Assembly (NCBI GenBank): GCA_046350905.1
Contig: JAXLZN010000001.1
Coordinates: 1,220-65,219 of the forward strand
Direction: 5' to 3'
Length of the DNA: 64,000 nucleotides
DNA from: Candidatus Anderseniibacteriota bacterium
Lineage (GTDB): Bacteria; Patescibacteriota; JAUYIX01
The position numbers and the translations under genes were made by a program. Numbering within the stretch: position 1 is the first letter of the stretch; every line of letters starts with the position of its first letter. The notes beneath the pieces are model-generated. The model was given only the letters and a program-made list of their open reading frames with translations. It did not search any database and was not told the DNA's origin. This document shows, piece by piece, positions 10,072 through 51,783 of this stretch.

Positions 10072-12606
10072 CTAGATCGCGCCCAAGATTTGGTTAGCAA
10101 CCGCTGCGCTGATGGCGCTGCCGTCGCCGATGATCGTGGCGCTGCTGATGGTGGCAGCGTGCGCCTTGAGGTAGTTGAGGATCGGCGTGGGCAGCTTGTC
10201 GGGCATGGTGAGCAGGACCGGCACGCTCTGGTCAGCTGCAAGCGTGTTAGCGATCAGGGCGGAGTAGAGCTGGCCGACGGCGAGTGAGGCCGTGCTGTAG
10301 GAGGTGGCGCCGATAACGACCGAACCGGGGAGCCCCTGGTCGGTCCCGAGCGCCACGATTACCCCGGTTGGGTTGGGGAAAAAGGCTTGCGCCAGCAGCG
10401 CGTTGGTGCTGTAGCGGTCGGTACCGGCGTACCGTGTGGTGATGCGACCCGCGCTCGATCCAGCGATCTCTACTTCGATACCCAGCGGCAGCGCATCGAG
10501 TCCGCCAACGATTACAATGTGCGTAATAGCGGGGTTTCTGTTCAAGAAGTCGCGCACGTAGGGATCGAGCGCAGAGGAGGAGCGGTGGTTGAGCAGGATC
10601 GGCTCAACCTTGCCGTCGGCGTGCTGGCCAGCTACGGCACCGACGGCGAGGTCGTCTGCAAAGCGTAGATCTTCGGTCATGTAGACCGTGTCGGTGGGCG
10701 AACCGTTCTTCTTAATGATCTCGTCTCCGATCAACGACGCAGTCTGCCGGCGGTTAACACCAGCAAAGCGCGCTAGGTTGGTGAATCCGTGCTTCTTGAG
10801 CGTTTGTTCGACCGTGGAGCTGACCGCGCGGGTGCCGCCAATGATGTAGACCTGGGCGGTCGGGCTGGCGATGACGCGCTGCAGCTCCGTGAGCGTCGCT
10901 GCATCGAGCGTCGCGGTGTCAGTCAAGAGCAGCGAGGCGCTGGTGAGGTTGACGAGCGGACCGCTGGCGAGCGAGTCGACGAGGTTGTTCTTGCGGGCGA
11001 TCGCCACAGCCTGAGCAGTGCCGGGCGTCGGGAAGCGCTGCTTGCTGATCTCAATGGCTTGGCGCTCTGGCGTGATGCCGGGGATGCGCGTAACCGTCGG
11101 TGTCGCTCCGTCATCGTTGATGATGGTGTAGGTAAAGTCTGACTGCGTCACGCTGTCGCTGTTAGCGTCCCCGAGACCGAGCAGGCTCGAGGGGTTCTGC
11201 AGGGCGAGGTGGATCGTCTCATCAGGCTCGCTGGTGGCATCGTCGAGGATCGTGACGCCGCTGAAGGAGATGGCCGTACCCGCGGCACCGTTGTACGAAC
11301 CGGCTGGTACGGTTACCGCGATGGGCGAGCTCATGGTGTAGTCCTGGTTGGCGCCTGGCGTGGCGGTAGCTGCGTCGACATCAACCACGTTGATGGTCTG
11401 CGCGCTCGGCAGGTTGCCCTTGATCAGCAGCGTCGGGAGGGTGATCGGGCTGCTCTCGGGACCAGCAGCGGTGCCTGTAGAAAACTCAACCAGGGCATTG
11501 AACCAGCCGGTGGTGTTGCCGCTGTTGATCGAGTTTGCGGGGTTGATCGGCAGGGTGATACCGGACGAGCTGTCGGTCACGGCACCGTCGCGAATATCGA
11601 GGAAGTCACCGGTAAAAGTCGAGGCGCCCTGGAACGCAACCGTTGCGGCCGTGCCGGGCGTGCTCGAGACAATGTTGAGGCGGTCGTCGTCGTCGAGACC
11701 GTCGAGCGTCAGCGCGGTCGTGATCGTACTGGTCGTGCCAGCACCAAAGGTCAGCGTGCAGTCCGTACTGTTGTCGCTCGACTCAATTTTGGTGAGCGTG
11801 GCAAACGTGGCCGAACCCAGGATGCTCTGGTTGCAGCCGTCGAGCGTGACCGTGGAGGTTCCCGCCGTAAACGTACCGTCTACTGCATCGAAGTCGCCCG
11901 CCACCGAGATCGCGTTGGCTGCAGCGGTCAAGGTGCCGTTGATGTCGAGCGTGCCGTTCGCGTCGATGGGGTTGCCGGGAGCGTAGGTGCTGCTGGTGTT
12001 GACGAGCAGCTCGATGCCCGAGGCGGTGGTGAGGGTGCCGCCCGGCACGGTGTAGATGCTGGTGATGTCGTCGGCCGAGCCGCCTGGGTCGACGCCATTG
12101 GCGGTCGCCAGGTTGGCGTTGGTGGTTGGACCAGCATCCTCGTGGCGCACGATGAGGTGGTTCTGGTAGAGGTCGATGCCGGCCAACCCGCTGGCCGCGT
12201 TGTGGCGGGTTACCGTCACGCCGTTCTCCGTCTCGTCGTCGAGGTAGAGCGTGAGTACGGCACCCGAGGCCGGGGGCGCGGTGTTGGCGTAGATTGAGTA
12301 CGCGCCGCTCCCGTTGGTGTCGTTGGTGGCGCCTGAGTCAGCTCCGTTGATCAAGAGACGAACCGTCTTGCCCGACCCGATGTTAGTGGTGCCCTCGTCG
12401 GTGTAGACCGTCCCGTCGACCCGGATACCAAACCAGTTGAACGTATTGGTGCCCTGGATTGAGTTTCCCGGGTTGATTGGTACGGTCAGCGCGCTCGAGT
12501 TGTCGGTGACGTGGCTGTCGGTGATGTCGAGGAAGTCGCCGGTAAAGGTCGAGGCACCCGTAAAGTTGAAGGTCGATTCGGTGCCCGGTGTGCTCGCCAC
12601 GAGCAC
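10072..12606 (-). CDS. C-terminal part of giant surface protein: repeat module, Calx-beta-like domain, 3x CWB2
   Basis: 844-aa ORF. Calx-beta-like stretch: QTINVVDVDAATATPGANQDY..ISFSGVTILDDATSEPDETIHLAL..FTYTIINDDG. Three CWB2 repeats follow (AVAIARKNNLVDSLASGPLV.., FAGVNRRQTASLI.., YAGTDRYSTNALLA..). Confidence 0.8.
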   Translation of the reverse strand: MLVASTPGTESTFNFTGASTFTGDFLDITDSHVTDNSSALTVPINPGNSIQGTNTFNWFGIRVDGTVYTDEGTTNIGSGKTVRLLINGADSGATNDTNGSGAYSIYANTAPPASGAVLTLYLDDETENGVTVTRHNAASGLAGIDLYQNHLIVRHEDAGPTTNANLATANGVDPGGSADDITSIYTVPGGTLTTASGIELLVNTSSTYAPGNPIDANGTLDINGTLTAAANAISVAGDFDAVDGTFTAGTSTVTLDGCNQSILGSATFATLTKIESSDNSTDCTLTFGAGTTSTITTALTLDGLDDDDRLNIVSSTPGTAATVAFQGASTFTGDFLDIRDGAVTDSSSGITLPINPANSINSGNTTGWFNALVEFSTGTAAGPESSPITLPTLLIKGNLPSAQTINVVDVDAATATPGANQDYTMSSPIAVTVPAGSYNGAAGTAISFSGVTILDDATSEPDETIHLALQNPSSLLGLGDANSDSVTQSDFTYTIINDDGATPTVTRIPGITPERQAIEISKQRFPTPGTAQAVAIARKNNLVDSLASGPLVNLTSASLLLTDTATLDAATLTELQRVIASPTAQVYIIGGTRAVSSTVEQTLKKHGFTNLARFAGVNRRQTASLIGDEIIKKNGSPTDTVYMTEDLRFADDLAVGAVAGQHADGKVEPILLNHRSSSALDPYVRDFLNRNPAITHIVIVGGLDALPLGIEVEIAGSSAGRITTRYAGTDRYSTNALLAQAFFPNPTGVIVALGTDQGLPGSVVIGATSYSTASLAVGQLYSALIANTLAADQSVPVLLTMPDKLPTPILNYLKAHAATISSATIIGDGSAISAAVANQILGAI

Positions 12607-15600
12607 GGCGGTCGTTGGCGTCGAGGCCGTCGAGGTTCAGCGAGTTGCCAATCGTGATGGTGGTGCTCGACGGAAAAGGCGTGCGGCTAGTCGCGTTGTT
12701 GGTAGTGTCTTGCTTGACCAGGTTGTAGAACGTTTGCACGCCGGCGGTCGTGAGAGCCTGGTTCGTCCCGTCCAGCGTTACCGTTGATGTTCCGGCGTTG
12801 AACGAGCCGTTGATGGTAAGGTTACCGCCCACAAAGACGTTCAAGGCTCCTGCATCGAGCGAATCGACCACGTCGAGGTTCTGATCAACGTCTAACACAT
12901 TGGAGTTGGTGCTGAGCAGTCCGTTGGTGATCATGAGGTTTGCGACGTGGAGCCCGCTACCAAGGTTGTAGGTGTCTTGCGTGGGGGCCGTATCGTCAAT
13001 CGTCAACGTGACGTAGTCGGTTCCGCCAAAGTCCTGGATGGTGATCAGGTCGGACGAACCATCGTTGTTACCGACGTATTGCCAGACCCCGCTGCTGGTG
13101 TCTTGGGTCAGTGCGACGGTTTCGAGGCCGGTGCGGCGCAGGGTGCCGTTGTTAGTGAAGGTGCCGTTGGCGGTGAGGTTTTGACCGTCGAGCGAGAGCA
13201 CTGCATTGGCAGCGAGGGTTAGGTCGTTGGCGCCGATGTTGAGGTTGGTGTTGGTGAGCGTGACCGGGTTGGTGGTGTTGGTAATAGAGACGTCCGAGCC
13301 AATCGCCGCGTTGCCGGCGTCGCAGCTCTGCGCAACCGTGCCATCAAAGGTGAGCGTGCCGGTGTGCGTCAGGGTGCCGTCGTTGTCGAGGTTGCCGGCA
13401 ACGTTGATGGCGTTGGCGCCGGCCGAAAGTGTGCCGCTGCTTGCAATGTGTAGGCTGCCGTTGATGTCGACAGCGTTCGTGGAAGAGTTGAGCTACCGTT
13501 GACCCGCAAGGTTGCACTGCTCGTCGTGCTAAGTGTTCCCGCGGCTACGTCGTAGATGCTCGTAATATCGTTAGCGCTACCACCGGGTCAGCGTTGTTAG
13601 CGGTGTCGAGGTTGGCCGTTGTGATTGGTCCAGCAGCTCCTCGTTGCGTACGACTAAGAAGTTCTGGTAGATGTCGAGGCCGGCGAGGTTGATGCTGCCG
13701 TCGTGGCGTGTAACCACCACACCGTTCTGTCGTCGTCAAGGTAGAGGGTGCGATCGAACCGGGTACGGGCACGCCGTACGTCATCGAGTACGCGCCGCTC
13801 CCGTCTGTATGGTAACCCCGGTATCGGCTCCGTTGACCAGCAGCCGGACCGTCTTACCGGCGCCGATGTTCAGTTCCTCGACCGGTGTGAACCGTGCCGC
13901 TGAACATTGGCGTCACCCCAAACCAGCCAGTTGTGTTGCCGCCATCGGTCGAGTTGGCCGGGTTGATCGGCAGGGTGATGCCGGTTTCGTCGTCACCGTG
14001 CTGTCGGTGATATCGAGGTGGTCACCGGTAAAGGTGGACGAGCCCGTAAACGTGATGGTGTTAGCGCTGGTGGGCGTGCTCGAGACGATGTTGAGCCCGG
14101 TCGTTGGCGTCGAGTCCATCGAGCGTGAGCGCGGTGTTGATCGTGATCACCGTTGCGGCGGGCATGGTGAGCGTACGGTCAGTCGCGTCGTTGGTGGTGT
14201 CTTGCTTGATGAGCGTGTGGAACGTCTGCGGCCCGCTCACGATCGCCTGATCGAGGCCGTCGAGCGTGACCGACGAGGTGCCTGCCGTAAACGTGCCAGC
14301 AAGCTGAGGTCGCCACCGACGGCCACCGTCGAGGCGCCCAGGTTGAGCGAACCAGCCGCCGCTACCAGAGCCTTGGTCAACGTCGAGGCCCTGGCTGGTG
14401 GTAGCGAAGTCCGCTCGTAACCGTGAGCGTGGTGGCGTGCAGCGGGTTGCCCAAGCTGTAGGTGTCCTGGGTGCCGGCCGTGTCGTTGATGACGAGCGTG
14501 GCGTAGTCTGGGTCACCAGGCTCGCAGATGGTCGGGTCAGAGGAGCCGTCGTTGTTACCGATGTACTCCCCGGAGTCCCGCTGCTCGTGTCTTGGGTTAG
14601 GCTGATCGTCTCGAGACCAGTGCGGCGCAGGGTGCCGTTGTTGGCAAAGGTGCCGTTGGCAGTTACGTTGCGGCCGCCGGTGGCGAGGATCCAGCGCTGG
14701 CATTGATGGTCAGGTCGTTGGCGCCGATGTCGAGTGCGTTGTCGACGAGCGTCACCGGGTTGATGGTGTTGGCGATGACAGGTCTGAGCCGATCGCGCTA
14801 CCTCCCGCGTTGCAGGTTTGGGCAATCGTGCCATCGAGGGTCAGCGTGCCGGTGTGCGTCAGGGTGCCGTCGTTGTCGAGGTTACCGGCAACGTTGATGG
14901 CGTTGGCGCCGCTGCTGAGGATACCCAGAATGTGGAGGCTGCCGTTGACATCGACGGCACCGGTTGAGAGGGTCTTACCTGAGTTGACGCGCAGGGTCGA
15001 GGTCGCGGTGGAGGTGAGTGTGCCAGCCGCCACATCGTAGATGCTCGTGATGTCGTTGCCCGAACCACCTGGGTCAGCGTTGTTGGCGGTGTCGAGGTTG
15101 GCGGTGGTGAGCGGCCCGGCATCTTCGTGCTGTGCGACCAAGAAGTCTTGGTAGATGTCGAGGCTCGGCACCGCTACGCTGCCGTCGAAGCGCGTAACCG
15201 TTACGCCGTTCTCTGCTTCATCGTCGAGGTAGAGGGTCAGCACGGCACCGCTCGCAACGATGTCGTTGTAGGTGATGCTGTACTGGCCGCTGCCGTTGGT
15301 GTCGTTGGTGGAGCCTGAGTTCGCGCCGTTGATAAGCAAACGAACGGTTTTGCCCACGCCGATGTTGGTCACACCCTCGTCGGTGTAGACCGTACCGCTG
15401 ATAGTAAAGCCAAACCAGTTGCTCGTGTTGCCGCCGTTGATGGAGTTGGCGGGGTTGAGCGGAACGGTTACCCCCGATGAGTTGTCTGTCACAGCGCTGT
15501 CGGTGACGTCGAGGAACCCGGCAGTCGTAAACGTCGAGCTCCCGGTAAAGTTGAGCGTGCTCTGCGTGGTGGGCGTACTCGAGACGATGTTGACCCGGTC

Positions 15601-17250
15601 GTTGGCGTCGAGTCCGTCGAGCGTGAGCGAGTTGCCGATGTCGATCGTGACGCTGGCCGGCATCGTGAGTGTGCGGTCGGTGCTGTCGTTACTGGCGTCC
15701 GACTTGGCCAGGTCGTAGAAGGTGATCGGTCCGCTCGCCGCAATGGTTTGGTTGACCCCGTCGAGCGTCACCGACGACGTGTTGGCTGCGAACGTGCCGT
15801 TGAGCGTGAGGCCTCCGCCGACCGTCACCGTCGAGGCTCCCAGGGTGAGCGAACCTGCCGCCGCATCACTCAACGCGCCATCCACGTCGAGGGTCTGGCC
15901 GGTGGTATCGAGCGGCCCGCTCGTGATAGTCAAGGTCGTGACGTGGAGCGGGCTACCCAGGCTGTAAGCGTCTTGCGTGCCCGCGGTATCGTTGATGGCG
16001 AGCGTAAAGTAGTCGGTCCCGCCAAAGTCCTGAATCGTGATCGGGTCAGACGAGCCATCGTTGTTGCCGACGTACTGCCAGACACCACTGTTGGTATCCT
16101 GGCTGATGCTGATCGTCTCGAGACCAGTGCGGCGCAGGGTGCCGTCGTTGCTAAAAGTACCGTTAGCGGTAACGTTTTTGCCGCTCGTGACCAACGTGGC
16201 ATTGGTGCCGATGGTCAAGTCGTTGGCGCCGATGTTGAGGTCGTTGTCGATCAAGCTAACCGTGCTGGCGCTGTTGGTGACGGACACGTCAGAACCGATC
16301 GCGACCGTACCTTGGTTGACCGTTTGAGCACCGCTGCCGTCAAAGGTCAGGGTGCCGGTGTGCGTGAGCGTGCCGTCGTTGTCGAGGTTGCCCGCTACGC
16401 TGATCGCGTTGGCAGCGGCGTTGAGCGTACCGAGGATGTGGAGGCTGCCGTTGTCGTCGATGGCGTTGGTCGAGAGGGTCTTGCCAGCATTGATACGCAG
16501 TGTGCTGCCGCCCACAACGCTCAACGTACCGCCCGACACATCGTAGATGCTCGTGATGTCGTTGCCCGAACCACCTGGGTCAGCGTTGTTGGCGGTGTCG
16601 AGGTTGGCGGTGGTGAGCGGCCCGGCATCTTCGTGCTGTGCGACCAAGAAGTCTTGGTAGATGTCGGCAGCTACGGTCCCGACTCCGTTGTAGCGCGTGA
16701 CCGTTACGCCGTTTTCGGTCTGGTCGTCCAGGTAGACTGTTAGAACCGCGCCGTTGGCGATTGCCGTGCCGTAGTCGATGCTGAAAGCCCCACCACCGCT
16801 CGTACTACCAGTTGCTCCCGTATCCACCCCATCGACAAGCAAACGTACCGTGCGACCAGCCCCCATGGTCGTAACACCCTCGTCGGTGTAGGCAGTTCCG
16901 CTAACGGCTGCACCAAACCAACCGACGTTGTTGCCACTGTCGATAGAGTTAGCTGGGACGAGCGGGAGCGCAACCCCGGAGGAATTGTCCGTTACGGTAC
17001 TATCCGAGACATCGAGGTAGTCACCCGTAAAGGTCGAGGAGCCCTTAAAATCGATCGAACTCGTGGCACCGGGAGTGCCCGAGACGATGTTGATGCGATC
17101 ATCGTTGTCTAAGCCATCCAGGGTCAGGGAGCTTGCGATCGTAACGGTCGCACTTGCCGTCATGCTTATTGTGGTATCCGTCGCGTCGTTGGTTGTTTCG
17201 GTCTTACTAAGGTTGTAGAACGTAACATCGCTCAAAATAATTTGAGTCAC
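11500..17250 (-). repeat. tandem coding repeat, period ~1.5 kb, about 4 copies
   Basis: The YTDEG-encoding landmark recurs near 16880, 15376, 13876 and 12394. Positions 15031-15160 are identical to 16537-16666 (130 nt, offset 1506). Confidence 0.7.
12383..14834 (-). pseudogene. central repeat copies of the giant gene, multiply frameshifted
   Basis: ORF fragments 12383..13201, 13545..13784, 13913..14119, 14061..14834 and 14377..14703 each encode pieces of the same module (NVTANGTF.NNGTLRRTGLET.., TLDGLDANDR.., DIYQ..) in different frames. Confidence 0.5.
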
Positions 17251-19119
17251 TCCGGATCCATCCAGAACAACCGTTCCATTGTTGTGGGTAAAGGTTGTGC
17301 CGCTGTTGTTGTTAAAGTTGAGGGCAACCGTCATGGTGCCGCTGGGGGCAGTAAAAGAGGCGGCTGTGTTGAGGCCAAACGAGTTGTTGACGTCAAAGGT
17401 GCTGTAGGCGCCAAAATTTTGCGTACCGCCGCTCTGGGTGTAGTTACCGTTGGTAATCAAGCCGCCAAACCCAGAAAGCACGCCAGTGCTGTCAAGCGCA
17501 AAGTGGGCAACGTTTCCTGAAGCGCCCACGGTGAGCGTGCCTGTACCGGACAAGGTGCCGTCCAGCGTGATTTGACCGCCCGTACCAGAGCCGATAGTCG
17601 GGTTGTTGCCGAGTGGGAAGGTGCAGGCGCTGCCGATAGTCTTGTTGCCGCTGGTGTGAGTGAACGTAACCAGGTTAAAGGTCGCGCTGTTGCAGCTGAG
17701 GCTGGCACCGCTCGCACCGTTAAAATTCAGCGTGCCCCCGTTGTGTACAAAGGTGCCACTAAAATTGATGGTGAAGGCACCTGCCACAGACATAGTCCCC
17801 GAAGGTGCGGTGAAGGTCCCTGCGGAGAGGGTAAAGAGGCTCGCTACCGTCATGGGGCTGTAGGCACCGAAGTTAGCAGTCGCCCCTGCCACAATTAACG
17901 AGTTCGCCGCCAGACCACCAAAACCTGAGAGGCTCGAGCCTGTGTTCATGGTAAACGTGCCGCCCGAGAAGGTCAGCGTGCCCGTACCAGAGAGCGTACC
18001 GTTAAGCGTTAAGCTGCCGCCACCACTGGAGCCAACAGTTGGGTTACTGCCCAACGGTAGGCTGCAGTCGCTGTTGACGGTCGCAGTGTTGGCAGTATGC
18101 GTAAACGTAACGAGGTTGAAGGTCGCACTGTTACACGCCAGTGCTGACGAAGTCGTCATCGTGAAGGTAAGCGTGCCCCCGTTGGCCGTAAAAGTGCCGC
18201 CGCTGATCGTCATAGCCTTGGCGATCGTCATAGTCCCCGAGGGAGCGGTAAAGGTTCCCGAGGAGAGTGTAAAGTTGTTGTTAATCGTCACCGGGCTGTA
18301 GGTGCCAAAGTTTGCGGTAGCCCCCGCAACAGTTAGTGTGCCGAAGTCCGTAAAACCACTAAAACCAGACAGGCTTGAGCCGGCGTTGAGCGTGAGGGTG
18401 TTGGCGGTACCGGACGAACCGAGCGAGAGGGTCCCGCTGCCAGAGAGCGTCCCGTTGAGGGTGATCAATCCACCGGTGGCTGTGGTCGGATTGCTACCTA
18501 AAGGAAAGCTACAGTCGCTGTTGATCGTCCGTGTACCACTCGAATGGTTAATCGTCACGGCATTAAAGCTCACGTTGTTGCAAGCGAGAGTTGCGCTACC
18601 TGTGCTTGCAATGTTGACCGTGCCGCTGTTGTGCGTAAACGTCCCACCGGTGATGGTGATGGTGCTGTTGAGGCTCATGGTGCCGGAGGGCGCCGTGAAA
18701 GTCCCCGAGGCCAAGGTGAAGGTGCCACTCACCGTCATGGGGCTGTAGCTGCCAAAGTTTGCGGTAGCACCTTGAATGTTGAGACCACTTCCACTAAACC
18801 CGCTGAACCCGGACAAGCTGGAGCCGGCGTTGAGACGCAACGTGCCGCCAGATGCAGTGAGCGTCCCACTACCTGAGAGCGTGCCGTTGAGGGTGATGCT
18901 TCCGCCGCCGCCAGACCCGATCGTGGGGGTGCTGCCAAGTGGGAAGCTACAGTCGCTCGAGACTGTTTTGGTACCACCCGTGTGGGTAAAAGTTACCAAG
19001 TTGAACGTCTTGCTATTGCAGGTTAAGGTTGGGCTAGCAAGACCGTTAAAGGTGACCGTTCCGCTGTTATGTGTAAACGTGACACCTGCGCCGAGCGTAA
19101 AGGTGCTCGAGACGGTCAA
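14752..19119 (-). CDS. N-terminal/central part of giant surface protein (1455-aa intact ORF)
   Basis: The first ~640 aa are ~146-aa Gly/Thr/Ser-rich repeats (LNAGSSLSGF..ATANFG.YSP..GTFTAPSGTM..GGTFTHNSGT..CN..FN.VTF.HT). Two full ~500-aa modules follow (..LTLDGLD.NDR.NIVS.TPG..STFTGD.LD..DS.VTDNSSG.., SGT.YTDEGVT..G.G.TVRLL..). Confidence 0.8.
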   Translation of the reverse strand: MTVSSTFTLGAGVTFTHNSGTVTFNGLASPTLTCNSKTFNLVTFTHTGGTKTVSSDCSFPLGSTPTIGSGGGGSITLNGTLSGSGTLTASGGTLRLNAGSSLSGFSGFSGSGLNIQGATANFGSYSPMTVSGTFTLASGTFTAPSGTMSLNSTITITGGTFTHNSGTVNIASTGSATLACNNVSFNAVTINHSSGTRTINSDCSFPLGSNPTTATGGLITLNGTLSGSGTLSLGSSGTANTLTLNAGSSLSGFSGFTDFGTLTVAGATANFGTYSPVTINNNFTLSSGTFTAPSGTMTIAKAMTISGGTFTANGGTLTFTMTTSSALACNSATFNLVTFTHTANTATVNSDCSLPLGSNPTVGSSGGGSLTLNGTLSGTGTLTFSGGTFTMNTGSSLSGFGGLAANSLIVAGATANFGAYSPMTVASLFTLSAGTFTAPSGTMSVAGAFTINFSGTFVHNGGTLNFNGASGASLSCNSATFNLVTFTHTSGNKTIGSACTFPLGNNPTIGSGTGGQITLDGTLSGTGTLTVGASGNVAHFALDSTGVLSGFGGLITNGNYTQSGGTQNFGAYSTFDVNNSFGLNTAASFTAPSGTMTVALNFNNNSGTTFTHNNGTVVLDGSGVTQIILSDVTFYNLSKTETTNDATDTTISMTASATVTIASSLTLDGLDNDDRINIVSGTPGATSSIDFKGSSTFTGDYLDVSDSTVTDNSSGVALPLVPANSIDSGNNVGWFGAAVSGTAYTDEGVTTMGAGRTVRLLVDGVDTGATGSTSGGGAFSIDYGTAIANGAVLTVYLDDQTENGVTVTRYNGVGTVAADIYQDFLVAQHEDAGPLTTANLDTANNADPGGSGNDITSIYDVSGGTLSVVGGSTLRINAGKTLSTNAIDDNGSLHILGTLNAAANAISVAGNLDNDGTLTHTGTLTFDGSGAQTVNQGTVAIGSDVSVTNSASTVSLIDNDLNIGANDLTIGTNATLVTSGKNVTANGTFSNDGTLRRTGLETISISQDTNSGVWQYVGNNDGSSDPITIQDFGGTDYFTLAINDTAGTQDAYSLGSPLHVTTLTITSGPLDTTGQTLDVDGALSDAAAGSLTLGASTVTVGGGLTLNGTFAANTSSVTLDGVNQTIAASGPITFYDLAKSDASNDSTDRTLTMPASVTIDIGNSLTLDGLDANDRVNIVSSTPTTQSTLNFTGSSTFTTAGFLDVTDSAVTDNSSGVTVPLNPANSINGGNTSNWFGFTISGTVYTDEGVTNIGVGKTVRLLINGANSGSTNDTNGSGQYSITYNDIVASGAVLTLYLDDEAENGVTVTRFDGSVAVPSLDIYQDFLVAQHEDAGPLTTANLDTANNADPGGSGNDITSIYDVAAGTLTSTATSTLRVNSGKTLSTGAVDVNGSLHILGILSSGANAINVAGNLDNDGTLTHTGTLTLDGTIAQTCNAGGSAIGSDLSSPTPSTR

Positions 19120-19120
19120 G
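17250..19120 (-). repeat. tandem coding repeat, period ~0.44 kb, 4-5 copies
   Basis: The landmark gccaaagtttgcggtagc and its variants recur near 18743, 18304, 17866 and 17410. The protein shows the matching ~146-aa repeat. Confidence 0.6.
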
Positions 19121-19629
19121 GTTGCAGGGGCCTTAAACGTGCCGCCTGTGTCAGCAGGAGAAGGTCCCCACTGTCGTTGAAGGTTTGGGCGTTGCCGTCA
19201 AACGTACCACCTGCTTGGCTGAAAGATGTCGTCGTCCCTACAGTTGCTTGCTGTGTGATCGTGCCGGTATAGCCGCTGCCGCCAGTGATGGAAAGAGTTG
19301 CTAAGCTGACAGCCACGTCGATGTTAGCGTTAGCAGTCGAGGTAGAATCGAAGGTGGCGGTATCTCCCACACCAGCGCCTCCTGGAATGTGGCCGGAGCA
19401 GCCCGACCGGTTACCGGCGGTGTTCCGGCTTGTTGTTGGCGCTACCGTTGGTCCAGGTGCAGCTCGCAGCAGGCAACCTGCAGCAGAGTTACGACTACGC
19501 CGACGATTACGAAGGCGGCAGCAAAGCCAGCGACAACCGGCACCAGCCGGCAGCAAGGCAGTCCTGTAGGCCTGCTACCTTTGTGGGAAGTCTCTCCGGA
19601 CATGCAATAAAAAGTGGGAGGTGCGCGCT

Positions 19630-20102: not shown

Positions 20103-20384
20103 CTGGCTCCGGGGGTGGGGGTCGAACCCACGACCTTCTCCTTACACGTATCCCAGGGTTTCCCGTGGGCGTGGACTATATCTTTGCCGTAACCCGTTGA
20201 GGTTGTAGGCACCTTGGTATCTAGTCTCTACGGAGCTCCCTCGCGAGAGGGTTCCCACGGTGTCGCCATTGCTGCCGTTGCCGGCTGCGGAAGGGTTCAC
20301 CGTTATCCCAAGATTGTTCATCGCACGGTTTCCCGCACGAGCTGCCAAGTGACAGGGAGCTGCTCTACCGCTGAGCTACCCCGG
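20103..20384 (-). tRNA. tRNA-Asn(GUU), interrupted by a group I intron; CCA encoded
   Basis: 5' exon 20384->20351: TCCGGGGTAGCTCAGCGGTAGAGCAGCTCCCTGT. 3' exon 20143->20103: TAAGGAGAAGGTCGTGGGTTCGACCCCCACCCCCGGAGCCA. Joined they give a 75-nt cloverleaf with anticodon loop CUGUUAA and G73. Confidence 0.8.
20144..20350 (-). ncRNA. group I intron (207 nt, ORF-less) in tRNA anticodon loop
   Basis: Core elements on the minus strand: GTGCGGGAAACC (P-like, 20337-20326), TCCGCAGCC (Q-like, 20290-20282), GTAGAGACTAGA (R-like, 20230-20219), AAGATATAGTCC (S, exact consensus, within 20184-20171). P1 pairs CUGU|C with GGCAG and has a U.G at the splice site. The terminal nucleotide is G. Confidence 0.85.
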
Positions 20385-20395
20385 AACGCCACGGC

Positions 20396-20430: not shown

Positions 20431-21478
20431 CTAGCGCTGCGCAGCCATGCGGGCAAGGGCGCGAACCACATCGTAGGCGACCTGCCGTGGCTGACCCGAG
20501 ACCGGGTAGTGGTGCGGGAGGATTGTGGGCGGGCTGTTGACCTCGACCACGACCGGTCGCGCGGCACGCTGCGTGCGGCCGGCGATGTTTTCGGTGAGGA
20601 TGTCGACGCCCGCGATGGCCAAGCCGGCCGCACGCGCCGTTCGCTCCACCAGCTTTTTGATGTAGGGCGAGGTCTGGTCGGTCACGTCCTCACTCCAGGC
20701 GCCCATCGAGCCGTTGGCGTTGGACCGGACCTGCACGGCACGCCCGGCGGCGGGCACCGAGTCGAGCGTCAGCTTGGCCCGGTTGAGCATGCGCTGGAAC
20801 TCGCGGTCGACCTCGAACGGACCGAGCAGCCTGGTCTGGCGCCGCGCCCGGCGGTTGTGGTCCTCGATCAGGTCGCCGACGGTGGAGTGGCCGTCACCGA
20901 CGATGCGCGGGTGGTAGCGGCGTGCCACGGCCAGACATTTGCCGTTGAGCACAAAGCAGCGGTGGTCCAGCCCGGGGTGGTGCCGCTGCACGACAAAGCG
21001 CTTGTTGCGCGCCTTGCGACGGATGAACTCAAAGGCGTGCTCGTAGGCAGCGCGCAGCTCTTCGTCGGTCTGGATGTCAGCCGCTACGCCGCTCCCTGCG
21101 AACCCCGGTCGGGCTTGACGACCACCGCGCGCTTTGGAAAGCCGAGCTTGCGCGCCGCCACCCGAATCTCCTCCCAGCTGCGCGCCAGGTCTCCGGCACC
21201 GGGGCGCCCAAGTCCGAGAGCAGGATGTGCGCCAGCCACTTGTGCTCAAAGATCCAGTCGGTGGCGCGGTCGTTGAGCGGCAGGATCTCCTTGTGCACGT
21301 AGACCCGGTGCTGTCCCCGCCCAAAGGCCATCAGGCTCTCGTTGTAGTCGAGCACCTCGACCGGTACCCCCAGTCGCTTAGCCGCGAACAGCAGCACCTG
21401 GTTGGCGATGTAGAGCCGGGCGTTGGGACCCGTACGGTAGGGCGGCATCGGGATGGGGACCATGCTGCGGCGAGCCAT
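20431..21478 (-). pseudogene. ATP-grasp ligase (cyanophycin-synthetase N-domain / RimK-like), two frame breaks at 21085-21190
   Basis: ORFs 21077..21478 and 20431..21324 plus a third-frame bridge SWEEIRVAARKLGFPKRAVVVKPDRGSQGA. ATP-grasp motifs: VVKPDRGSQGAGV and SNANGSMGAWSEDVTDQTSP (CphA-like NxSxGG..DVTD..HP). Confidence 0.7.
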
Positions 21479-21479
21479 G

Positions 21480-23236
21480 CTAGGTCGCGCTACGTTCGCT
21501 ACGGAGCGCCAACAGAAAGGGCGGCGGCTCGCGGTGGCCGTGGCGGCGGAGGGTTGCAGCGAACGCCGGCGTGACCTTGCCGACCATCAGCTCGTTGAGG
21601 ACATCCAGAATCGTCTGGGCCACGGTGAGTTGCGGGATCGTAGCACGGCGCCGGGAGCGCACAAGCTGCCGGACGAGACGGCGGGCCACCTCGCGCGCTA
21701 GCCAGGCTTCGAGCCGCTTGATGCCGCGGTAGTAGGCAGCGTCCCGCAGGTTGACGTTGCGCGGCCGGCGGCGGCCGTCGGTCATGCGCACCAGCCGGCG
21801 GATCGTTTCGTAGAGTTCGTCGGCGGGCGGGCCGAACTGCGCGCACAGGTCGTAGATCTCCTGCCAGGAGTAGCGCGGCACGCGGCGCGCCCCGCCGCGT
21901 GCCGCGCGAGTCTGCATCGCCAGGTTGGCGGCGTAGTAGCCGAGGGCGTGGCTCTCGCGCCGGTGGTGCGACGCTCGGTCACGGCGAGGCGTTCGAGCAG
22001 CGAGGCGAGCCCCTCCTCGTAGTCGAGGCTGCCGCGCACACCCGTCGCCAGGATGGCAAAGGGTCCCCGCCGGCCGGCCTCGGCACGCAGGATGTGCGAG
22101 AGCTCGTGGAGGCCGAGGTCGAGGTAGCGGTCCTGCATCGAGAGCAGGGGCGGGTCGCCGGGGAGCTCGAGCAGGAGGACGCGGCGCTGCTCAGGCTGCA
22201 CGACGATCGAGGCGCTGGCGTAGGGCGACACGTCGACGCTCCACCCCACGCTGGCAGGCTGGTCGGGACGACGGAGGGGCAACCCCAGACGCTTGAGGTT
22301 GGCGCGAACGACGCGCGCGGCTTGGCTGGCGCGCAGGGTTTTGTGGAGCGGCCGCTGGGCGAGGTAGGGCACGTGCGCACCATCTGCAGCCCGAAAGACC
22401 GCCGCCAGCAGCCGCGCGCGGAGCCGCTCGGCCGCACCAGCAGGTGCTCGTGCGCTGAGTTCGTCGACGAGGTGGAGCGCGGCCGTCCCGTGCGTCGTGT
22501 GCGGCAGCCTGCGGAGGCGTTGCGCCGCTACGGCGTATACGCGCGCCGGCAGCAGCCGGCGCCAGCGGGCGAGGAGCTGGCGGCGCACCGCTGGTGTCAG
22601 TGGGAGGCTCGCCAGGACGCGACGCTGAAACGCCACGAGTTCGTCTTGGGCAGCGGCGGCAAACTCGAGCTCACCCTCGCCGGGGCCGTGGTAGAGCGCC
22701 CAGAGCTCGCGTCCAGCCGCGGGCGTGCCGCGGGCGAGGGCGACCCGCAGCTCGTGAGCGCCGGTCAGGTACTCCGCGAGTACGTACGGCGGGATGGTGC
22801 GGAGCTGCCCGCGGTGCTGGTCGCGATGGAGCTCCCTCGTACGCCGCTCGAGCATGGCGAGGCTGGTCCGCAAGGCGCGTCGGTCCAGCTGCAGGAGGTA
22901 GCGCGGTCGGCTGCGCCGGAGCAGCGCATCCGCCGTACCAGCCTCGAGCGCACGGCGCAGCCGACGCCCGTAGGGCACAGTAAAGTTGCTCGCCGGGAGC
23001 CAGGAGCTCGGGGTGGGCTGGTGCAGGTAGCCGTTGAGCCAGCGGTCGGGTTGCTCGGTTCGCCGCAGCGTCGCACGCGGGCTGCGCACAAAGGTGATGC
23101 GGCCGTGCAGGTACGCAAGACCTGCGCTCAGTACGCCTGCCACGTCAGGTGCTGCCACTGTTGACAGTAGCGTAGCACCCCGCGCGGGTGGGTGTGGTAG
23201 GATTTGGGCACTTACCCGGTAACCAAAGGGAATCAC
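21480..23236 (-). pseudogene. DUF1704 / MATCAP-like zinc metallopeptidase (QEGLA-motif family), one frame break near 21950
   Basis: HExxH in DLGLHELSHILRAE and EGLA in SLDYEEGLASLLERL. The C-terminal part continues in ORF 21480..21917 (..RVPRYSWQEIYDLCAQFG..). Its stop is 1 nt from the ATP-grasp start. Confidence 0.65.
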
Positions 23237-23239
23237 TAT

Positions 23240-24865
23240 ATGAGGCGTCTACGCCCTCTTTCGTTCCTGCTCGCCCTAGCGACTACGCTGTGGACGGGAG
23301 GTTTTTCGTACCTACAGTTCGCGCCTGTCGCGAACGCTGCCGCACCGGCAGATAGCAGCCTGCAGGTCCTCGGCTCGCCCGAGTCGCTGCTGCAAGCTGG
23401 TCCAGCTTTGACTGGCTCAGACCTGAAGAGCAACGGCCAGGCCTTCAAGGACGCGGTTGCTGCAGACCGCGCCAAGCTGCAGACCAAGAGCGTGCAGGGC
23501 TCATCGGTCAACGGCAAGGACGTGACCATGGCCCCGAGCATCAGCGAGAACACCATCGCGGTGCTCCCCGCAACTATGTCGGCTCTCGACAGCTGGGACG
23601 GCGTCACGGTCGAACGTAACGACGCGAGCGGTCGACGCTACGTGGCCTGGATTGATGGTCGCGATGCGGCTTCGGCTGGTCTGTCATCGATCTACTTCAG
23701 CCGCTCGACCGATAACGGCGCGACCTGGAGCAGCCCGGTCCGCGCGGACAACCCCGCCGGTGGTCCGGCCTACGTCTGGCTCGGCCTCAACCTGGTAGCT
23801 GACCAGCAGGGCCACCTCGTGTTGGTGTGGGATGACTACCGCACCCTCGGTACAGGCGGTGGCGTCGCGCAAGTCTTCTACAGCCGTTCGAGTGACGCGG
23901 GGCAAACCTGGACGACACCGACGGCCCTGACGACGGATAGCCGCGTCTCGGTCTTCGCGCCGTACATCAACGGTACGATGGACAGCGACGGCAACACCAA
24001 CATTTTCTGGAGCGACGTGCGCACAGGCACTGCATTTGGTCCGGTCCGCGTCTACAGCATCCACTCGGGCAACCGTGGGACGAGCTGGGACCTCAACCAG
24101 ATCATCGACGATTCGGCTGGTACCGGGGCCGACTTTGCGCAGCGTGCAGCCCTCGGTAAAAACGGTGAGGTCATGGTGGGCTGGGACAGCAACCGTGCGG
24201 GCGGCTCGGGTGAGGACTTCATCCTGGCACGTTCGACCAACGGTGGTACCTCGTTTGCCGCAGACGTCATGATCAACCAGTACGCTGCCGGAACGATCAA
24301 CCTCGACCGGCTGCACCTCTGCTCAGACAGCCACGGCCAGGTGCTGGCAGCCTGGATGGGCGACGACCCGTCAACCTCTGACCCCGGCACGATCTACACA
24401 CGCACCTCGGCAGATTTTGGTGCCACCTGGTCAGCAACCAGCCCTGTGCTTACGACGAACGCTGACTTGGTCGACCCGACGCCGGCCGCCTGTGCGTTTG
24501 GCAGCACCCACATGGCAGTGGGCTGGCAGGACAAGACCAACAACGCCCTCAACGTAGCCTCGAGCAACGACGGTGGCGCCAACTGGTCTATCCAGGGTGT
24601 CGAACGCGACGTTCCTCTTGGATGCTGCGACGCTGACGAATTCTTGCTCGGCGTCGACAACGCCGGTCGCGTGCTTGCTGTCTGGACCGACAGCCGCAAC
24701 GGCACCAACGACGTGTTCGTCAACTACTCACTGGATGGCGGTACGACCTGGCAGACGGCCGACTTTAAGGCCACCAACCAAGTTCCGTCTGGCTCGAGCA
24801 CGGTCGTCCTCGGCAACGCCAGTTTCTCTCTGGCCCAGGGCAACCCCGACGCTACCGGCGCCTGA
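23240..24865 (+). CDS. secreted BNR/Asp-box repeat beta-propeller protein
   Basis: Signal peptide MRRLRPLSFLLALATTLWTGG. Six or more Asp-boxes: SRSTDNGATWS, SRSSDAGQTWT, RSTNGGTSF, TSADFGATWS, SSNDGGANWS, YSLDGGTTWQ. An SD-like AAAGGGA precedes ATG 23240. Confidence 0.8.
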   Translation: MRRLRPLSFLLALATTLWTGGFSYLQFAPVANAAAPADSSLQVLGSPESLLQAGPALTGSDLKSNGQAFKDAVAADRAKLQTKSVQGSSVNGKDVTMAPSISENTIAVLPATMSALDSWDGVTVERNDASGRRYVAWIDGRDAASAGLSSIYFSRSTDNGATWSSPVRADNPAGGPAYVWLGLNLVADQQGHLVLVWDDYRTLGTGGGVAQVFYSRSSDAGQTWTTPTALTTDSRVSVFAPYINGTMDSDGNTNIFWSDVRTGTAFGPVRVYSIHSGNRGTSWDLNQIIDDSAGTGADFAQRAALGKNGEVMVGWDSNRAGGSGEDFILARSTNGGTSFAADVMINQYAAGTINLDRLHLCSDSHGQVLAAWMGDDPSTSDPGTIYTRTSADFGATWSATSPVLTTNADLVDPTPAACAFGSTHMAVGWQDKTNNALNVASSNDGGANWSIQGVERDVPLGCCDADEFLLGVDNAGRVLAVWTDSRNGTNDVFVNYSLDGGTTWQTADFKATNQVPSGSSTVVLGNASFSLAQGNPDATGA

Positions 24866-24986
24866 CGTTCAACATGAACTACTACGACCTGCGCGCAGGC
24901 GCGTGGCCTGTACTCCGGCCGCGTGACCTTCACCGGCAGCAAGAGCAACCTGCAGCGCCTCCTCGAGCGATCGCTACAAGACCGGC

Positions 24987-25916
24987 GTGGCAGTCGCGCA
25001 GAACCAGTTCCCGACCGCAGGAACGGTCTCGGGGGCGGTCTTTGCCACCGGTGAGAACTTCCCAGACGGCCTCTCCTCGACCTCGCTCGCCGCGATGGTC
25101 AACGGACCGGTCTTCTTGGTTAAGCACAACTCGCTGCCCTCAGAGGTTGCAGCGGAGTTCCTGCGTGAGTACGACAAGAAGACGGACGCCGGCACCGACG
25201 CCTACGTGGTCGGTGGTACCTCCGCGGTCAGTACGAGCGTCGAGAACGCCATTAAGGCGCTCGACCCCTCGATCAACCTCAAGCGTCTCTCTGGCAGCAA
25301 CCGCAAGAAGACCGCAGTGGCGGTTGCCAAGGAAGAGGACGTGCTGCGCGGCTCGACCCCCAAGCAGGCCATCATGGCCAACGCGGGTGGCTTTGCGGAC
25401 GCCCTGACCGGTGGTGCCATTGCCGGCAACACCGGCATCCAGAACGACCTGATGCCGGTCCTCTTGACCGACACGGGCTCGCTCGACCCTGACACCAAGG
25501 CCTACCTGTCCTCGATCGCCAGTACGCTGACCCAGCTCCACATCATCGGTGGTACCTCAGCAGTCTCGTCTGCGACGGCGACTGCCGCTGACGCAGTGGT
25601 TGCAACGGTGGTCCGCCACGCTGGTGGCAACCGCTACAGCACGGCGACGCAGGCAGCTTCGGACTTCTTCAAGGGCAGCTTGGCGCCGCAGAAGTTCGGC
25701 CTAGCGAGCGGGACCAACTTCCCCGACTCGCTGACCGGTGGCCTGTGGGCAGCCCTGCACCTCTCGCCGCTGCTCCTCAGCGACCCGAGCACCTTGAGCA
25801 GCGAGACCTCGACGTACCTCACCGCTAACGCCGGCACGATTGATAGCGGCGCAGCCTTCGGTGGGACGTCAGCGCTCAAGCAAGCAGTCCTCGACGCAGC
25901 CTCTGCGCTCTACTAG
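24987..25916 (+). CDS. triple CWB2 (cell wall binding repeat 2) domain protein; probably the C-terminus of the BNR protein
   Basis: Three repeats with GENFPDGLSSTSLAAMVNGPVFLV, GGFADALTGGAIAG..MPVLLT and GTNFPDSLTGGLWAALHLSPLLLS. There is no signal peptide of its own. See the finding on the 24860-24975 frame breaks. Confidence 0.75.
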   Translation: MAVAQNQFPTAGTVSGAVFATGENFPDGLSSTSLAAMVNGPVFLVKHNSLPSEVAAEFLREYDKKTDAGTDAYVVGGTSAVSTSVENAIKALDPSINLKRLSGSNRKKTAVAVAKEEDVLRGSTPKQAIMANAGGFADALTGGAIAGNTGIQNDLMPVLLTDTGSLDPDTKAYLSSIASTLTQLHIIGGTSAVSSATATAADAVVATVVRHAGGNRYSTATQAASDFFKGSLAPQKFGLASGTNFPDSLTGGLWAALHLSPLLLSDPSTLSSETSTYLTANAGTIDSGAAFGGTSALKQAVLDAASALY

Positions 25917-41161: not shown

Positions 41162-42250
41162 CTAGCTGACCGTCGCGCCGACGGGCTGGATCACGAGGCC
41201 GGCGGTGGAGAGCTCGGGCTGCTCGTTGGAGAGCTGCGGGAGTTCGCCGGCGAGGAGGCGCCGGTACGTGGCGATGGTGCGCTCGCGGAACCAGGTGCGG
41301 CGGTCCTGCTCGTGGAACTTGAGCACGCTGTCGCTGATCACGATGTGCTGGGTCGGGGTGCGCAGCTCGGTCGGAGCAGTTTTTTGCATGCGGTGGAGCT
41401 GGCGGGTGCGGAGGCGAACCTCGAGTCGGTCGCCACGCGGGCCGCCGAGGATTTTTTCTGCGAGCAGGCGGAGCGGCTGGGTCGTGCTGTCGACTGCGGC
41501 GGGAACACGTCGACGGTCAGATGGACGCTGCGGCGCTAGGTTGGGCATGAGCGCCTGGGTCCAGGGGTTGGCGAGCGCCAGCGCGTGGCCGAGCGACCAG
41601 CCGCGCCGCTCCCAGACCGGGCCGAGGCTGGCAATCCAGTGGGCCAGGTACGGATCGTCGCCTGCGAGTGCCAGCGGCTGCAGGTTGAGTGCGTCGTCAG
41701 CCAGGTAGAAGGAGAGGCACATGCGGTTGGCGACGTGGCTCTTGCGCCGAAACCGCCCGAACCCAAACACCACGCCGGTCACGAGCATTCGCGCGGTCCA
41801 CATGCGGCCGGGCTGCACGGTGATGAGTAGGTCGACGTCGGAGGTCGGCTTGGCTACGCCCATCGAGACCGTATTGGCGACCGAGATCGAGGTGACAAAG
41901 GGCACCAGCGAGAGCAGCGCCGCGGTGCTACGCGCGCGACGCCACTTGAACTCGCTCACCTTGCCGCGCTGGATGCGCTGCTCGATGTGCTCGAGGTTGC
42001 GCAGCGAGAGGTGACCGCGGTCGCGGTGCGTGACGGTCTTGAGCAGCGGATCGGTTTGCAGCAGCCGGTAGACCTCGCCGTAGCTGGCCTGCCACTTGGG
42101 GAGGCAGCGCCAGACTTCGTAGGCGGTCGGGGCGATGCCCAGCGCGTCGAGGTACGAGAGCGACAGGAGGATGGCCTGCTGCAGGCAGACAGGGCGCGGG
42201 AGCAGGCTGAGCTCAGCCTCGGAGGGGAAGTTCTGGACGTCCTGGTTCAC
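41162..42250 (-). CDS. nucleotidyltransferase-fold (Pol-beta-like) protein
   Basis: GVAKPTSDVDLLITV matches the G[SG]..SD[IV]DL NTase motif. GTG start at 42250. Confidence 0.5.
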   Translation of the reverse strand: MNQDVQNFPSEAELSLLPRPVCLQQAILLSLSYLDALGIAPTAYEVWRCLPKWQASYGEVYRLLQTDPLLKTVTHRDRGHLSLRNLEHIEQRIQRGKVSEFKWRRARSTAALLSLVPFVTSISVANTVSMGVAKPTSDVDLLITVQPGRMWTARMLVTGVVFGFGRFRRKSHVANRMCLSFYLADDALNLQPLALAGDDPYLAHWIASLGPVWERRGWSLGHALALANPWTQALMPNLAPQRPSDRRRVPAAVDSTTQPLRLLAEKILGGPRGDRLEVRLRTRQLHRMQKTAPTELRTPTQHIVISDSVLKFHEQDRRTWFRERTIATYRRLLAGELPQLSNEQPELSTAGLVIQPVGATVS

Positions 42251-42259
42251 CCAGACAGT

Positions 42260-42790
42260 CTAGCGCAGAAGCTCGGCCACGAGCCGCCGATCAACGGCTG
42301 TCCCCGGCAAGAGCCGCTGAATCCCCCGCGCGAGGTCCGGAAAGCTACCGGCGCCAATAAAGCGCCCAGCGATGTTGCCAGCCGCATCGATCAAGATGGT
42401 CGTGGGCCAAAAGCGAACCTCAAAGCGGTGGTAGTTCTCGTAGTCGTTGTCGACCGCGACCGGCGGTGATGCGAGTCCGTACCGCTCGAGCTACGTTGGC
42501 AACGTCTGACAAACAGAACTCGGGCGTGTGCACCCCAATGAGCTGAAAGGCTGCGCTTTTGTAGGCGCGCTGGAGCACGGAGGTGCGCTCAGGAGGGACT
42601 GGCTGTGGTGGTCGGCAAAGGACCAGGTTGATGACGCGACCTTGCCCGAGGAGGTCGCCGTCCGATCGTGCGCGTTCGATCCACTCGGAGGCTTCGAGGT
42701 TGGGCGCCCTGACGATGGGATCGTCCTGGCTCGCAGCTCCGGTCGGAGCAGGCTCAGTTGGCTGCGCAAACGTGCTCAAACAGGAAATTA
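42260..42790 (-). pseudogene. thioredoxin-fold redoxin (TlpA/DipZ C-terminal-like) remnant
   Basis: FQLIGVHTPEF..DVANVARAVR, then (shifted near 42470) PVAVDNDYENYHRFEVRFWPTTILIDAAGNIAGRFIGA. The CxxC region is degenerate (LVLCRPPQP). The lipobox-like LISC has no hydrophobic signal upstream. Confidence 0.5.
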
Positions 42791-42942
42791 GGCGACTGCC
42801 ATCCTTTGTATTCCGCGCCTTTGTTTCCTTTTTGACGGACGTTATTCGAACCTTTGCCCCTAGTCTAGCGGATTCGGCGCGCTGGCGCTCATCTAACATC
42901 AGCAGATGATTTGCAGGAGAACAGCCACATAAGTCTGACCAA

Positions 42943-43276: not shown

Positions 43277-43321
43277 TTACTGATCGCACCCACGTTTGGT
43301 CGACCAATCAGTCTGCCTTTG

Positions 43322-47385: not shown

Positions 47386-47391
47386 GAAGCT

Positions 47392-48365: not shown

Positions 48366-48378
48366 ACTCGAGCGCCCA

Positions 48379-51772: not shown

Positions 51773-51783
51773 CACCCGCTGAC

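Follow-up and report, generated by a model that had tools for sequence, protein, structure and literature searches.

To our knowledge, enzymes of the MATCAP family are understood solely as eukaryotic tubulin-tail carboxypeptidases, and their bacterial and archaeal relatives in DUF1704 and TIGR02421 have no demonstrated function. MATCAP, or TMCP1-2 (KIAA0895L, KIAA0895; PF08014), is a strongly basic gluzincin with an HExxH motif and a downstream Glu, and it is paired biologically with an ATP-grasp ligase, TTL, that re-adds the residue removed. The TMCP enzymes have been described as metallocarboxypeptidases acting on acidic tubulin tails, in a paper that is silent on bacterial homologs (PMC10499314). 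A bacterial arrangement of similar logic is RimK-RimB (with RimA) in polyglutamylation of ribosomal protein S6, in which an ATP-grasp ligase that adds residues to a protein C-terminus and a protease that removes them are co-transcribed as a pair, and of which hybrid fusions exist (PMC7343187, PMC11957791). Here we describe a gene pair that resembles both systems, in a 64,000-nucleotide (nt) stretch of DNA, hereafter the window, from a metagenome-assembled genome (MAG) of a high-GC Candidatus Andersenbacteria (Patescibacteria). It consists of a gene for a very divergent peptidase that we place in the MATCAP superfamily and a gene for an ATP-grasp ligase of the CphA type.

ATP-grasp + DUF1704 modules are widespread and uncharacterised, and this locus, from a rare high-GC Patescibacteria clade, represents a divergent form of them in which the genes are unfused and the ligase is of a different subfamily. 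The best explanation for it as a whole, which we hold with even confidence for and against, is that it is a coupled operon for a writer/eraser pair acting on a C-terminal carboxylate, and that the frame breaks now found in both genes are probably errors of assembly.

A coupled peptidase and ligase operon

Both genes lie on the minus strand between 23236 and 20431, where the first-pass annotation of this DNA had reported open frames; the stop-to-stop open reading frames (ORFs) are exactly as it described them. The features of the pair are as follows.

21480..23158, minus strand: gene for a gluzincin peptidase assigned to the MATCAP/DUF1704 superfamily, from its ORFs, orthologs P0002-P0006 and P0127, PF08014 scores and the fold of P0004
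22094..22108, minus strand: HELSH, the HExxH zinc-binding/catalytic motif (H377, E378 and H381, counted from 23236)
22004..22018, minus strand: EEGLA motif, with its Glu about 30 residues past HExxH, within the region aligned to the QEGLA of TIGR02421 and to PF08014
21732..21800, minus strand: conserved Arg (R481/R482) and Asp-x-x-Tyr (D500, Y503), 3' of the peptidase frame break and kept in the second frame
21479..21482, minus strand: gene junction, with the peptidase TAG at 21482-21480, a single C (21479) and the ligase ATG at 21478-21476
20431..21478, minus strand: gene for a stand-alone ATP-grasp ligase, from NF010623/TIGR02068 matches and orthologs; 350 amino acids after two 1-nt repairs

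The peptidase is carried by two stop-to-stop pieces, 23236..21782 (frame A, a 484-amino-acid ORF) and 21917..21480 (frame B). The mechanical ORF reaches GTG 23236, and the start is probably GTG 23158, the start of the NCBI protein (P0001) and one matched by intact P0127; counted from there, the product is about 560 amino acids long after a 1-nt repair. Its short N-terminus was considered as a sign of decay and this was rejected, since the intact 552-amino-acid P0127 is equally short. The ligase passes through three frames (21478..~21185, ~21185..~21093 and ~21093..20431) to a stop codon at 20433-20431. One nucleotide separates the two genes, as had been reported along with their likely coupling, and the orthologous loci have a spacing of 0-14 nt. 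Peptidase and ligase form a bicistronic, translationally coupled operon with the peptidase first.

The MATCAP/DUF1704 label that the first-pass annotation attached to the peptidase stands for the superfamily, by profile and by fold, but the window copy fails the curated thresholds of both families. After repair it scores 13.1 bits (E=0.045) against PF08014, for which the gathering threshold is 27, and 11.8 bits (E=0.1) against TIGR02421, for which the NCBIfam cut-off is 338.65, and both alignments are limited to the motif region; Pfam and NCBIfam gave nothing for the peptidase on the raw, unrepaired ORFs. Orthologs P0002-P0005 reach 16-21 bits against PF08014, and P0006 alone passes, with 35.7 bits. 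Profile searches, which might have named another peptidase family, gave PF08014 as the sole substantial match of the orthologs, P0006 having in addition a sub-threshold match to TRIP13_N.

Family alignment A1, used as a sequence profile, matched nothing in the PDB at E<=1 and found no relative among GTDB species representatives; the link to MATCAP required a larger profile search and a fold comparison. Searching 1.84 billion representative proteins with alignment A3 (hmmsearch) returned 113 matches at E<1e-3, just 6 of them closer than 1e-30. Nine of ten sampled matches are PF08014 at 47-199 bits and the tenth is an N-terminal fragment from the window clade; every sampled match outside that clade is a bona fide PF08014 protein. 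For the fold, ortholog P0004 stood in for the frame-broken window protein, and its AlphaFold (AF2) model has a pLDDT of about 90 over the catalytic half. The sole matches of this model at E<0.01 in a Foldseek search of the PDB were human MATCAP, 7z5g and 7z6s (probability 1.0, E 2e-4 to 1e-3, target-normalised TM-score 0.40-0.46, 19-20% identity). Because the family profile retrieves PF08014, P0006 passes its threshold and the P0004 fold matches MATCAP, these profiles and the predicted model place the window peptidase in the MATCAP/DUF1704 superfamily, as a rare and very divergent branch below the curated thresholds. The family is represented by six 90%-identity clusters among 5.8 billion.

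The residues expected of such an enzyme are retained. Among 84 aligned relatives (alignment A4), both His of HExxH, the Gly of EGLA, one Arg and one Tyr are invariant, and the catalytic Glu of HExxH and the EE pair are nearly so; in P0004 numbering the conserved columns are E484, E485 and G486, together with R555 and Y576, which are invariant, and R558 and D573, which are nearly invariant. The window peptidase keeps all of these on both sides of its frame break, R482 and Y503 lying after it. The Glu of EEGLA is presumed to be the third zinc ligand of the gluzincin. The protein has a long helical N-terminal region followed by a C-terminal catalytic domain of the MATCAP/DUF1704 gluzincin type, and it is very basic (pI about 11, net charge +32 to +47 in the window clade). 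We predict a cytoplasmic zinc metallopeptidase; neither the peptidase nor the ligase has a signal peptide. Against these likenesses to MATCAP stand the low identity, a TM-score of just ~0.45, the score below the Pfam threshold and an extra helical region of 270-350 amino acids N-terminal to the catalytic domain in the window family. Moreover, the window host has no tubulin, and its ligase is not of the TTL family.

By its sequence matches the ligase is clearly a stand-alone homolog of the CphA G domain, related to GshAB and to N-acetylglutaminylglutamine (NAGGN) synthetase. The repaired protein matches NF010623, cyanophycin synthetase, at 2.6e-68 over model positions 164-472 of 871. With NF010623 and TIGR02068 it scores 227-231 bits, its residues 27-345 aligning to model positions 162-472, the ATP-grasp G domain. 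It matches the GshB half of GshAB at 2e-49 and NAGGN synthetase at 3.7e-38, and in the PDB the orthologous ligase of locus L001 matches CphA1 chains at 3e-34 (7wac) to 3e-29 and GshAB 3ln7 at 2e-26. The CphA1 G domain and the GshB half of GshAB, the best matches, belong to enzymes that extend a C-terminal carboxylate with ATP. Unlike them, the window ligase is only 350 amino acids long and is without the GshA half and the N domain and Mur-ligase-like M domain of CphA1, nothing aligning to model positions 1-160 or 473-871. The absence of the N and M domains rules it out as a cyanophycin synthetase, and its scores lie far below the equivalog cut-offs of CphA (877 or 850 bits) and GshAB (425 bits).

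The ligase had been called CphA/RimK-like, and the first half of that name is borne out by the cyanophycin synthetase match. For the second half, the Pfam RimK domain PF08443 is reached (23.9 bits, gathering score 21), and this domain-level threshold is the only one passed: the RimK family TIGR00768 gives 50.2 bits against a cut-off of 143.4, and the tubulin-tyrosine ligase family PF03133 gives 11.7 bits (E=0.15) against a threshold of 20.1. The window ligase shares with its orthologs the Lys of VVVKP and the D...E-x-N metal ligands, catalytic residues are kept on either side of its breaks, and identity to intact orthologs is 68-72% in each of the three frame segments. Like the peptidase, the ligase is basic (net charge +10 to +23 in the window clade).

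Conservation of the pair and recurrence of the module

The pair is present in five of five close lineages: the window, P0002 with P0010, P0004 with P0130, P0003 with P0008, and P0005 with P0009. Intact orthologous pairs are found on a 520-kb JGI contig (L001), in Logan assemblies (L002, L005/L006 and L015) and elsewhere in the same MAG, on a second contig. Between peptidase and ligase there are 0 nt in L005, 1 nt in L015 and 14 nt in L001 and L002, a tight spacing that is kept over orthologs 56-79% identical. The pair lies downstream of dnaG and rpoD and is transcribed divergently from a surface-protein gene with BNR repeats and CW_binding_2 (CWB2) domains, and this BNR/CWB2 neighbour occurs in all six loci.

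The second copy in the same MAG, U0514_03615/03620 on a 19,467-nt contig, is itself divergent. Its peptidase is 79% identical to that of the window and its ligase, P0010, is 70% identical to the repaired window ligase. This ligase is intact, and the peptidase was called N-terminally short, at 370 amino acids, with an intact 552-amino-acid version in Logan assembly L015. The copy is either a true paralog or a contamination of the bin by a related organism.

To look beyond the clade, GTDB representatives were scanned with classical DUF1704 sequences, which gave 227 relatives and 80 loci. An ATP-grasp gene is adjacent or fused to DUF1704 in 8 of these 80, and the co-occurrence that the first-pass annotation had proposed to count is concentrated in certain lineages, with 5/6 Patescibacteria (candidate phyla radiation) loci and 6/18 bacterial loci. 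In the archaea it is nearly absent, with 2/62. A separate sampling of distant DUF1704 contexts gave L007 and L011, in which a RimK-related ATP-grasp gene (TIGR02291) lies immediately upstream. Modules comparable to that of the window are thus seen in L007, L011, L078, L079, L087, L089, L090 and L092. In four loci a single polypeptide of about 790 amino acids comprises a PF14397 ATP-grasp domain, sometimes a retropepsin-like PF05618 domain, and PF08014. Fusions of this kind are abundant, chiefly among Patescibacteria, and their hosts include Saccharibacteria, Gracilibacteria, other Patescibacteria, Nitrospirota and others. A protein-database search with one fusion returned 2822 matches at E<1e-20, and the best 120 of the 2822 all carry both domains; some sources name such proteins "alpha-L-glutamate ligase-like protein/TIGR02421 family".

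Directly downstream of the fusion in L090 and L092 there is a second ATP-grasp gene, whose best match among the queries is the window-type ligase. One or two extra ATP-grasp genes often follow the fusion in the GTDB Patescibacteria loci (L090, L079, L087, L089, L092), and PF05618 is RimB-like. Proteins of the seven-transmembrane (7TM) transglutaminase family PF14402 adjoin DUF1704 in three loci.

Proteobacteria provide further cases, in agreement with the earlier remark that the pairing had been noted in some of them as a conserved neighbourhood with no demonstrated function. In Vibrio vulnificus VV2_1203 (COG3930) adjoins VV2_1204 (COG0189) (PMC3091676), and in Photobacterium damselae two adjacent genes, "GshB" and QEGLA, rise in expression 38-fold and 27.5-fold at low salinity, 1% NaCl (PMC10308900). 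Our literature search found no functional study of any member of an ATP-grasp + DUF1704 module, and no paper combining "DUF1704" with "ATP-grasp". The association of the two families is real, recurrent and lineage-specific, and it is already visible in public annotation. The window pair shares with the bacterial module of DUF1704/TIGR02421 and TIGR02291/PF14397 the two-component logic of a peptidase and an ATP-grasp enzyme. It differs in that its genes are unfused, its ligase is of the CphA-G/GshB type and not PF14397, there is no retropepsin-like domain, and its peptidase is far more divergent.

Several of these observations count against a functional partnership in the window locus. The genomes behind the five close loci are related, their sigma-70 proteins being 86-93% identical, and for this reason the common gene order is weak evidence by itself. 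No ATP-grasp gene adjoins that of the most distant relative, P0006 (34% identity, locus L003), so that the expected conservation of the pair holds in the close lineages but not there. L003 keeps the rpoD/BNR-CWB2/peptidase synteny, and P0006 is flanked by an unrelated 395-amino-acid protein and a B12-radical-SAM enzyme. The 395-amino-acid gene upstream of P0006 was considered as a hidden ATP-grasp gene and rejected, having no family match and no alignable similarity. The ligase subfamily of the window also differs from the one fused to DUF1704 elsewhere, and the archaeal count implies that the DUF1704 family is not generally ligase-dependent.

From such points it could be argued that adjacency in the window clade is inherited synteny with no functional coupling, the peptidase acting alone, for example on surface or cell-wall proteins, and the ligase having an unrelated role. 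The close relationship of the five paired loci and the P0006 order without a ligase both fit this idea, as does the fact that archaeal DUF1704 genes sit mostly among housekeeping genes. However, a 0-14 nt spacing has been kept despite considerable sequence divergence, and ATP-grasp and DUF1704 domains have been fused or placed side by side repeatedly and independently, with different ligase subfamilies and in unrelated lineages. The co-induction seen in Photobacterium also speaks for coupling. Nor are the two enzymes, which have no signal peptides, likely to act directly on exported CWB2 proteins outside the cell. We therefore think mere synteny quite improbable.

Reversible C-terminal tailing as a proposed function

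ATP-grasp enzymes of the CphA-G, GshB and NAGGN type convert a free alpha-carboxylate to an acyl-phosphate, which is joined to the amine of an incoming amino acid. By this chemistry the window ligase would lengthen a peptide, a protein tail or a growing homopolymer at its C-terminal carboxylate by at least one amino acid, probably an acidic one, and the peptidase would trim residues from the C-terminus that the ligase has made. Together they would determine whether a C-terminal extension is present or how long it is, in the manner of RimK-RimB on ribosomal protein S6 and TTL-MATCAP on tubulin. We infer this writer/eraser cycle from domain chemistry, from the fusions and from the RimK-RimB and TTL-MATCAP precedents. 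Differences from the precedents have been given above for MATCAP, and for RimK the distance is that between the 50 bits of the window ligase and a family cut-off of 143. The strongly basic charge of both enzymes fits an acidic substrate. GroEL and BipA of the window are acidic, unlike the peptidase and ligase, with a net charge of -15 for GroEL; a basic charge is also common to classical DUF1704 proteins.

The product might instead be a small peptide or a free poly-amino acid, such as poly-Asp or poly-Glu, a cyanophycin-like reserve or a NAGGN-like osmolyte, made and degraded by the pair in parallel with CphA and cyanophycinase; the peptidase would then be the partner that breaks the product down or generates primers. 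The nearest characterised relatives of the ligase do build non-ribosomal peptides (cyanophycin, glutathione and NAGGN), RimK with RimB also yields free poly-alpha-glutamate (PMC11957791), and the salinity response of the Photobacterium pair fits osmolyte metabolism. Yet the window ligase is without the N and M domains required for cyanophycin synthesis, and the characterised MATCAP-family enzymes all act on protein C-terminal tails (PMC10499314). The neighbourhood of the window pair, moreover, holds no transporter, acetyltransferase or amidotransferase genes that would back an osmolyte pathway. On balance a free polymer seems to us rather unlikely.

At its boldest, the writer/eraser reading would make the pair a prokaryotic counterpart of tubulin tyrosination and detyrosination, in which the ligase extends the C-terminus of a specific Patescibacteria protein and the peptidase erases the extension, giving a reversible "C-terminal code". 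Candidates for the tailed protein would be a ribosomal, cytoskeletal or envelope-assembly protein. We consider this specific form improbable as it stands. If it were true, each of the abundant ATP-grasp-DUF1704 fusions would combine writer and eraser in one chain, and eukaryotic MATCAP would have its ancestry in a system of this kind.

Frame breaks, the wider window and the value of the locus

Both genes had been said to carry frame breaks, and three net 1-base deletions were found where these had been placed. They are listed here with the two other genes of the window in which breaks bear most on their cause.

21961..21963, minus strand: frame break 1, in the peptidase; net 1-nt deletion, CCC to CC, with ACC ACC CGG read as ACCACCGG
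21178..21218 (about 21185), minus strand: frame break 2, in the ligase; net 1-nt deletion between PVPETW and SWEEI
21092..21093, minus strand: frame break 3, in the ligase; GGAAGC to GGAGC, with GGA AGC GGC read as GGAGCGGC where orthologs have GSQGSGV
23204..25916, plus strand: BNR-repeat/CW_binding_2 surface-protein gene, orthologous to an 891-amino-acid L001 protein and divergently transcribed from the pair
55155-58128, minus strand: uvrA, broken into ORFs of 689 and 342 amino acids by two 1-nt deletions about 40 nt apart, near 56195-56235

Break 1 was judged against the intact sequence of P0002/P0127, RRTTRRESHALGYY; the 484-amino-acid ORF goes out of frame after LERLAVTERRTTGA, and coding resumes in the other frame as RESHALGYYAANLA. 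The NCBI entry MFO0702278.1 (P0001, hypothetical protein U0514_00110) is the window peptidase product with its out-of-frame tail, and because that tail is identical the break is part of the public record. Break 3 falls inside the KPDRGSQG-x-GV phosphate-binding loop of the ligase. In all there are at least 10 breaks in the window: 1 in the peptidase, 2 in the ligase, 3 in the BNR/CWB2 gene, at least 1 in a giant repeat surface protein, probably 1 at about 12610 and 2 in uvrA. The three frame switches of the BNR/CWB2 gene lie within about 130 nt (~24857, ~24897 and ~24961), and of the uvrA deletions one is GGGG to GGG and the other falls in a CGN AAG codon pair. The codon-usage hidden Markov model (HMM) gives no exact frameshift count; its output is noisy at 13.9-14.8 kb and at 60.5-64 kb, and it does not see the low-GC region of 42-55 kb.

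Those breaks that can be resolved are all net losses of 1-2 nt, several of them in short homopolymers (CCC to CC, GGGG to GGG, AA to A). The broken genes have no nonsense substitution and no larger lesion, and similarity to orthologs is equal before and after each break. Judged by these sequence comparisons, the three breaks in the pair are probably errors of the assembly consensus and both genes probably intact in the organism, a reading favoured by the small-deletion signature and by the fact that uvrA, a housekeeping repair gene, is broken too. Programmed frameshifting was considered and rejected, as orthologs read the same positions in one frame and like breaks occur in unrelated genes.

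The distribution of the breaks points partly the other way. Six fall in the 5.5 kb from 20431 to 25916, a density above that of the neighbouring housekeeping genes and one that fits real decay too. DnaG and RpoD have no breaks relative to orthologs, and GroEL and BipA have full-length ORFs with complete Pfam domains. An intact second ligase copy in the same MAG could, besides, make the window copy dispensable. Put together, this would describe a genuine pseudogene locus in which peptidase, ligase and BNR/CWB2 gene were recently inactivated together, perhaps with redundancy from the second copy, whose 350-amino-acid ligase P0010 is intact. It would also suit this account that the nearby PDDEXK, VIT1 and DUF4430 genes, like those of DnaG and RpoD, are intact relative to orthologs, that the breaks stand in the deposited record, and that the remaining broken genes of the window are mostly accessory surface proteins.

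Against decay, the located breaks are uniformly net deletions of 1-2 nt, several in short homopolymers, with no in-frame nonsense, no larger indels and a conservation (68-72% identity in all segments) that continues past them. They also bunch within tens of bases, three in 130 nt of the BNR gene and two in 40 nt of uvrA, which is typical of poor consensus. A housekeeping gene for repair, uvrA, is affected too, and the second copy could stem from a different organism binned into the MAG. We regard genuine inactivation as possible, if somewhat unlikely, and keep to consensus error as the probable cause.

Other parts of the window show similar irregularities. The giant repeat surface protein (14752-19556, minus strand) consists of a 1455-amino-acid ORF and an N-terminal piece in another frame, with the break at about 19150-19190; it matches an L002 protein of at least 1735 amino acids, in which Pfam finds CW_binding_2. 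A second CWB2 protein (10075-13479, minus strand) has an apparent frame switch near 12610, and the codon-usage HMM makes several frame changes at 13984-14778. From 60520 to 63996 on the plus strand, where the end encodes CW_binding_2 repeats, the HMM alternates between two plus-strand frames; stops in the upstream frame come 67-450 nt past most switches, and one coincides with a stop. This alternation suggests further frameshifts or an unusual composition. The stretch at about 42250-55270 has a G+C content of 45-56%, against about 65%, and is not scored as coding by the codon-usage model of the window. Within it lie genes for a 7TM histidine kinase (48379-50409) and for an aldehyde-dehydrogenase-like protein (45191-47047), and the stretch may be an island that was acquired or may result from a mis-join in the MAG.

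Next to the ligase lies a gene for tRNA-Asn(GTT) (20104-20385, minus strand), the anticodon loop of which is interrupted between nt 36 and 37 by an insert of about 207 nt (20351-20145). ARAGORN does not find this gene in the window sequence, but once the insert is removed it recognises the resulting 75-mer as a canonical tRNA. In a 601-nt search the insert aligned with the full Rfam Group I intron model, including the core AAGAUAUAGUCC, at 20.6 bits (E=0.006), below the threshold of 50; no Rfam family passed its gathering threshold in the window. A promoter-like site is found just upstream of the tRNA, at 20424-20397.

The window copy is itself of lesser value, since public annotation already reveals the general pairing and the assembled copy carries breaks. 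Better objects of study would be the fusion proteins or the intact orthologs of L001 and L015. Seen together, the window locus and the fusions, which number in the hundreds, indicate that MATCAP-type peptidases have repeatedly been wired to amino-acid ligases in bacteria. This pairing yields a concrete hypothesis, reversible C-terminal tailing, for a two-protein or a single-protein system, and makes the locus a moderately interesting starting point for learning what MATCAP-family enzymes do in prokaryotes.

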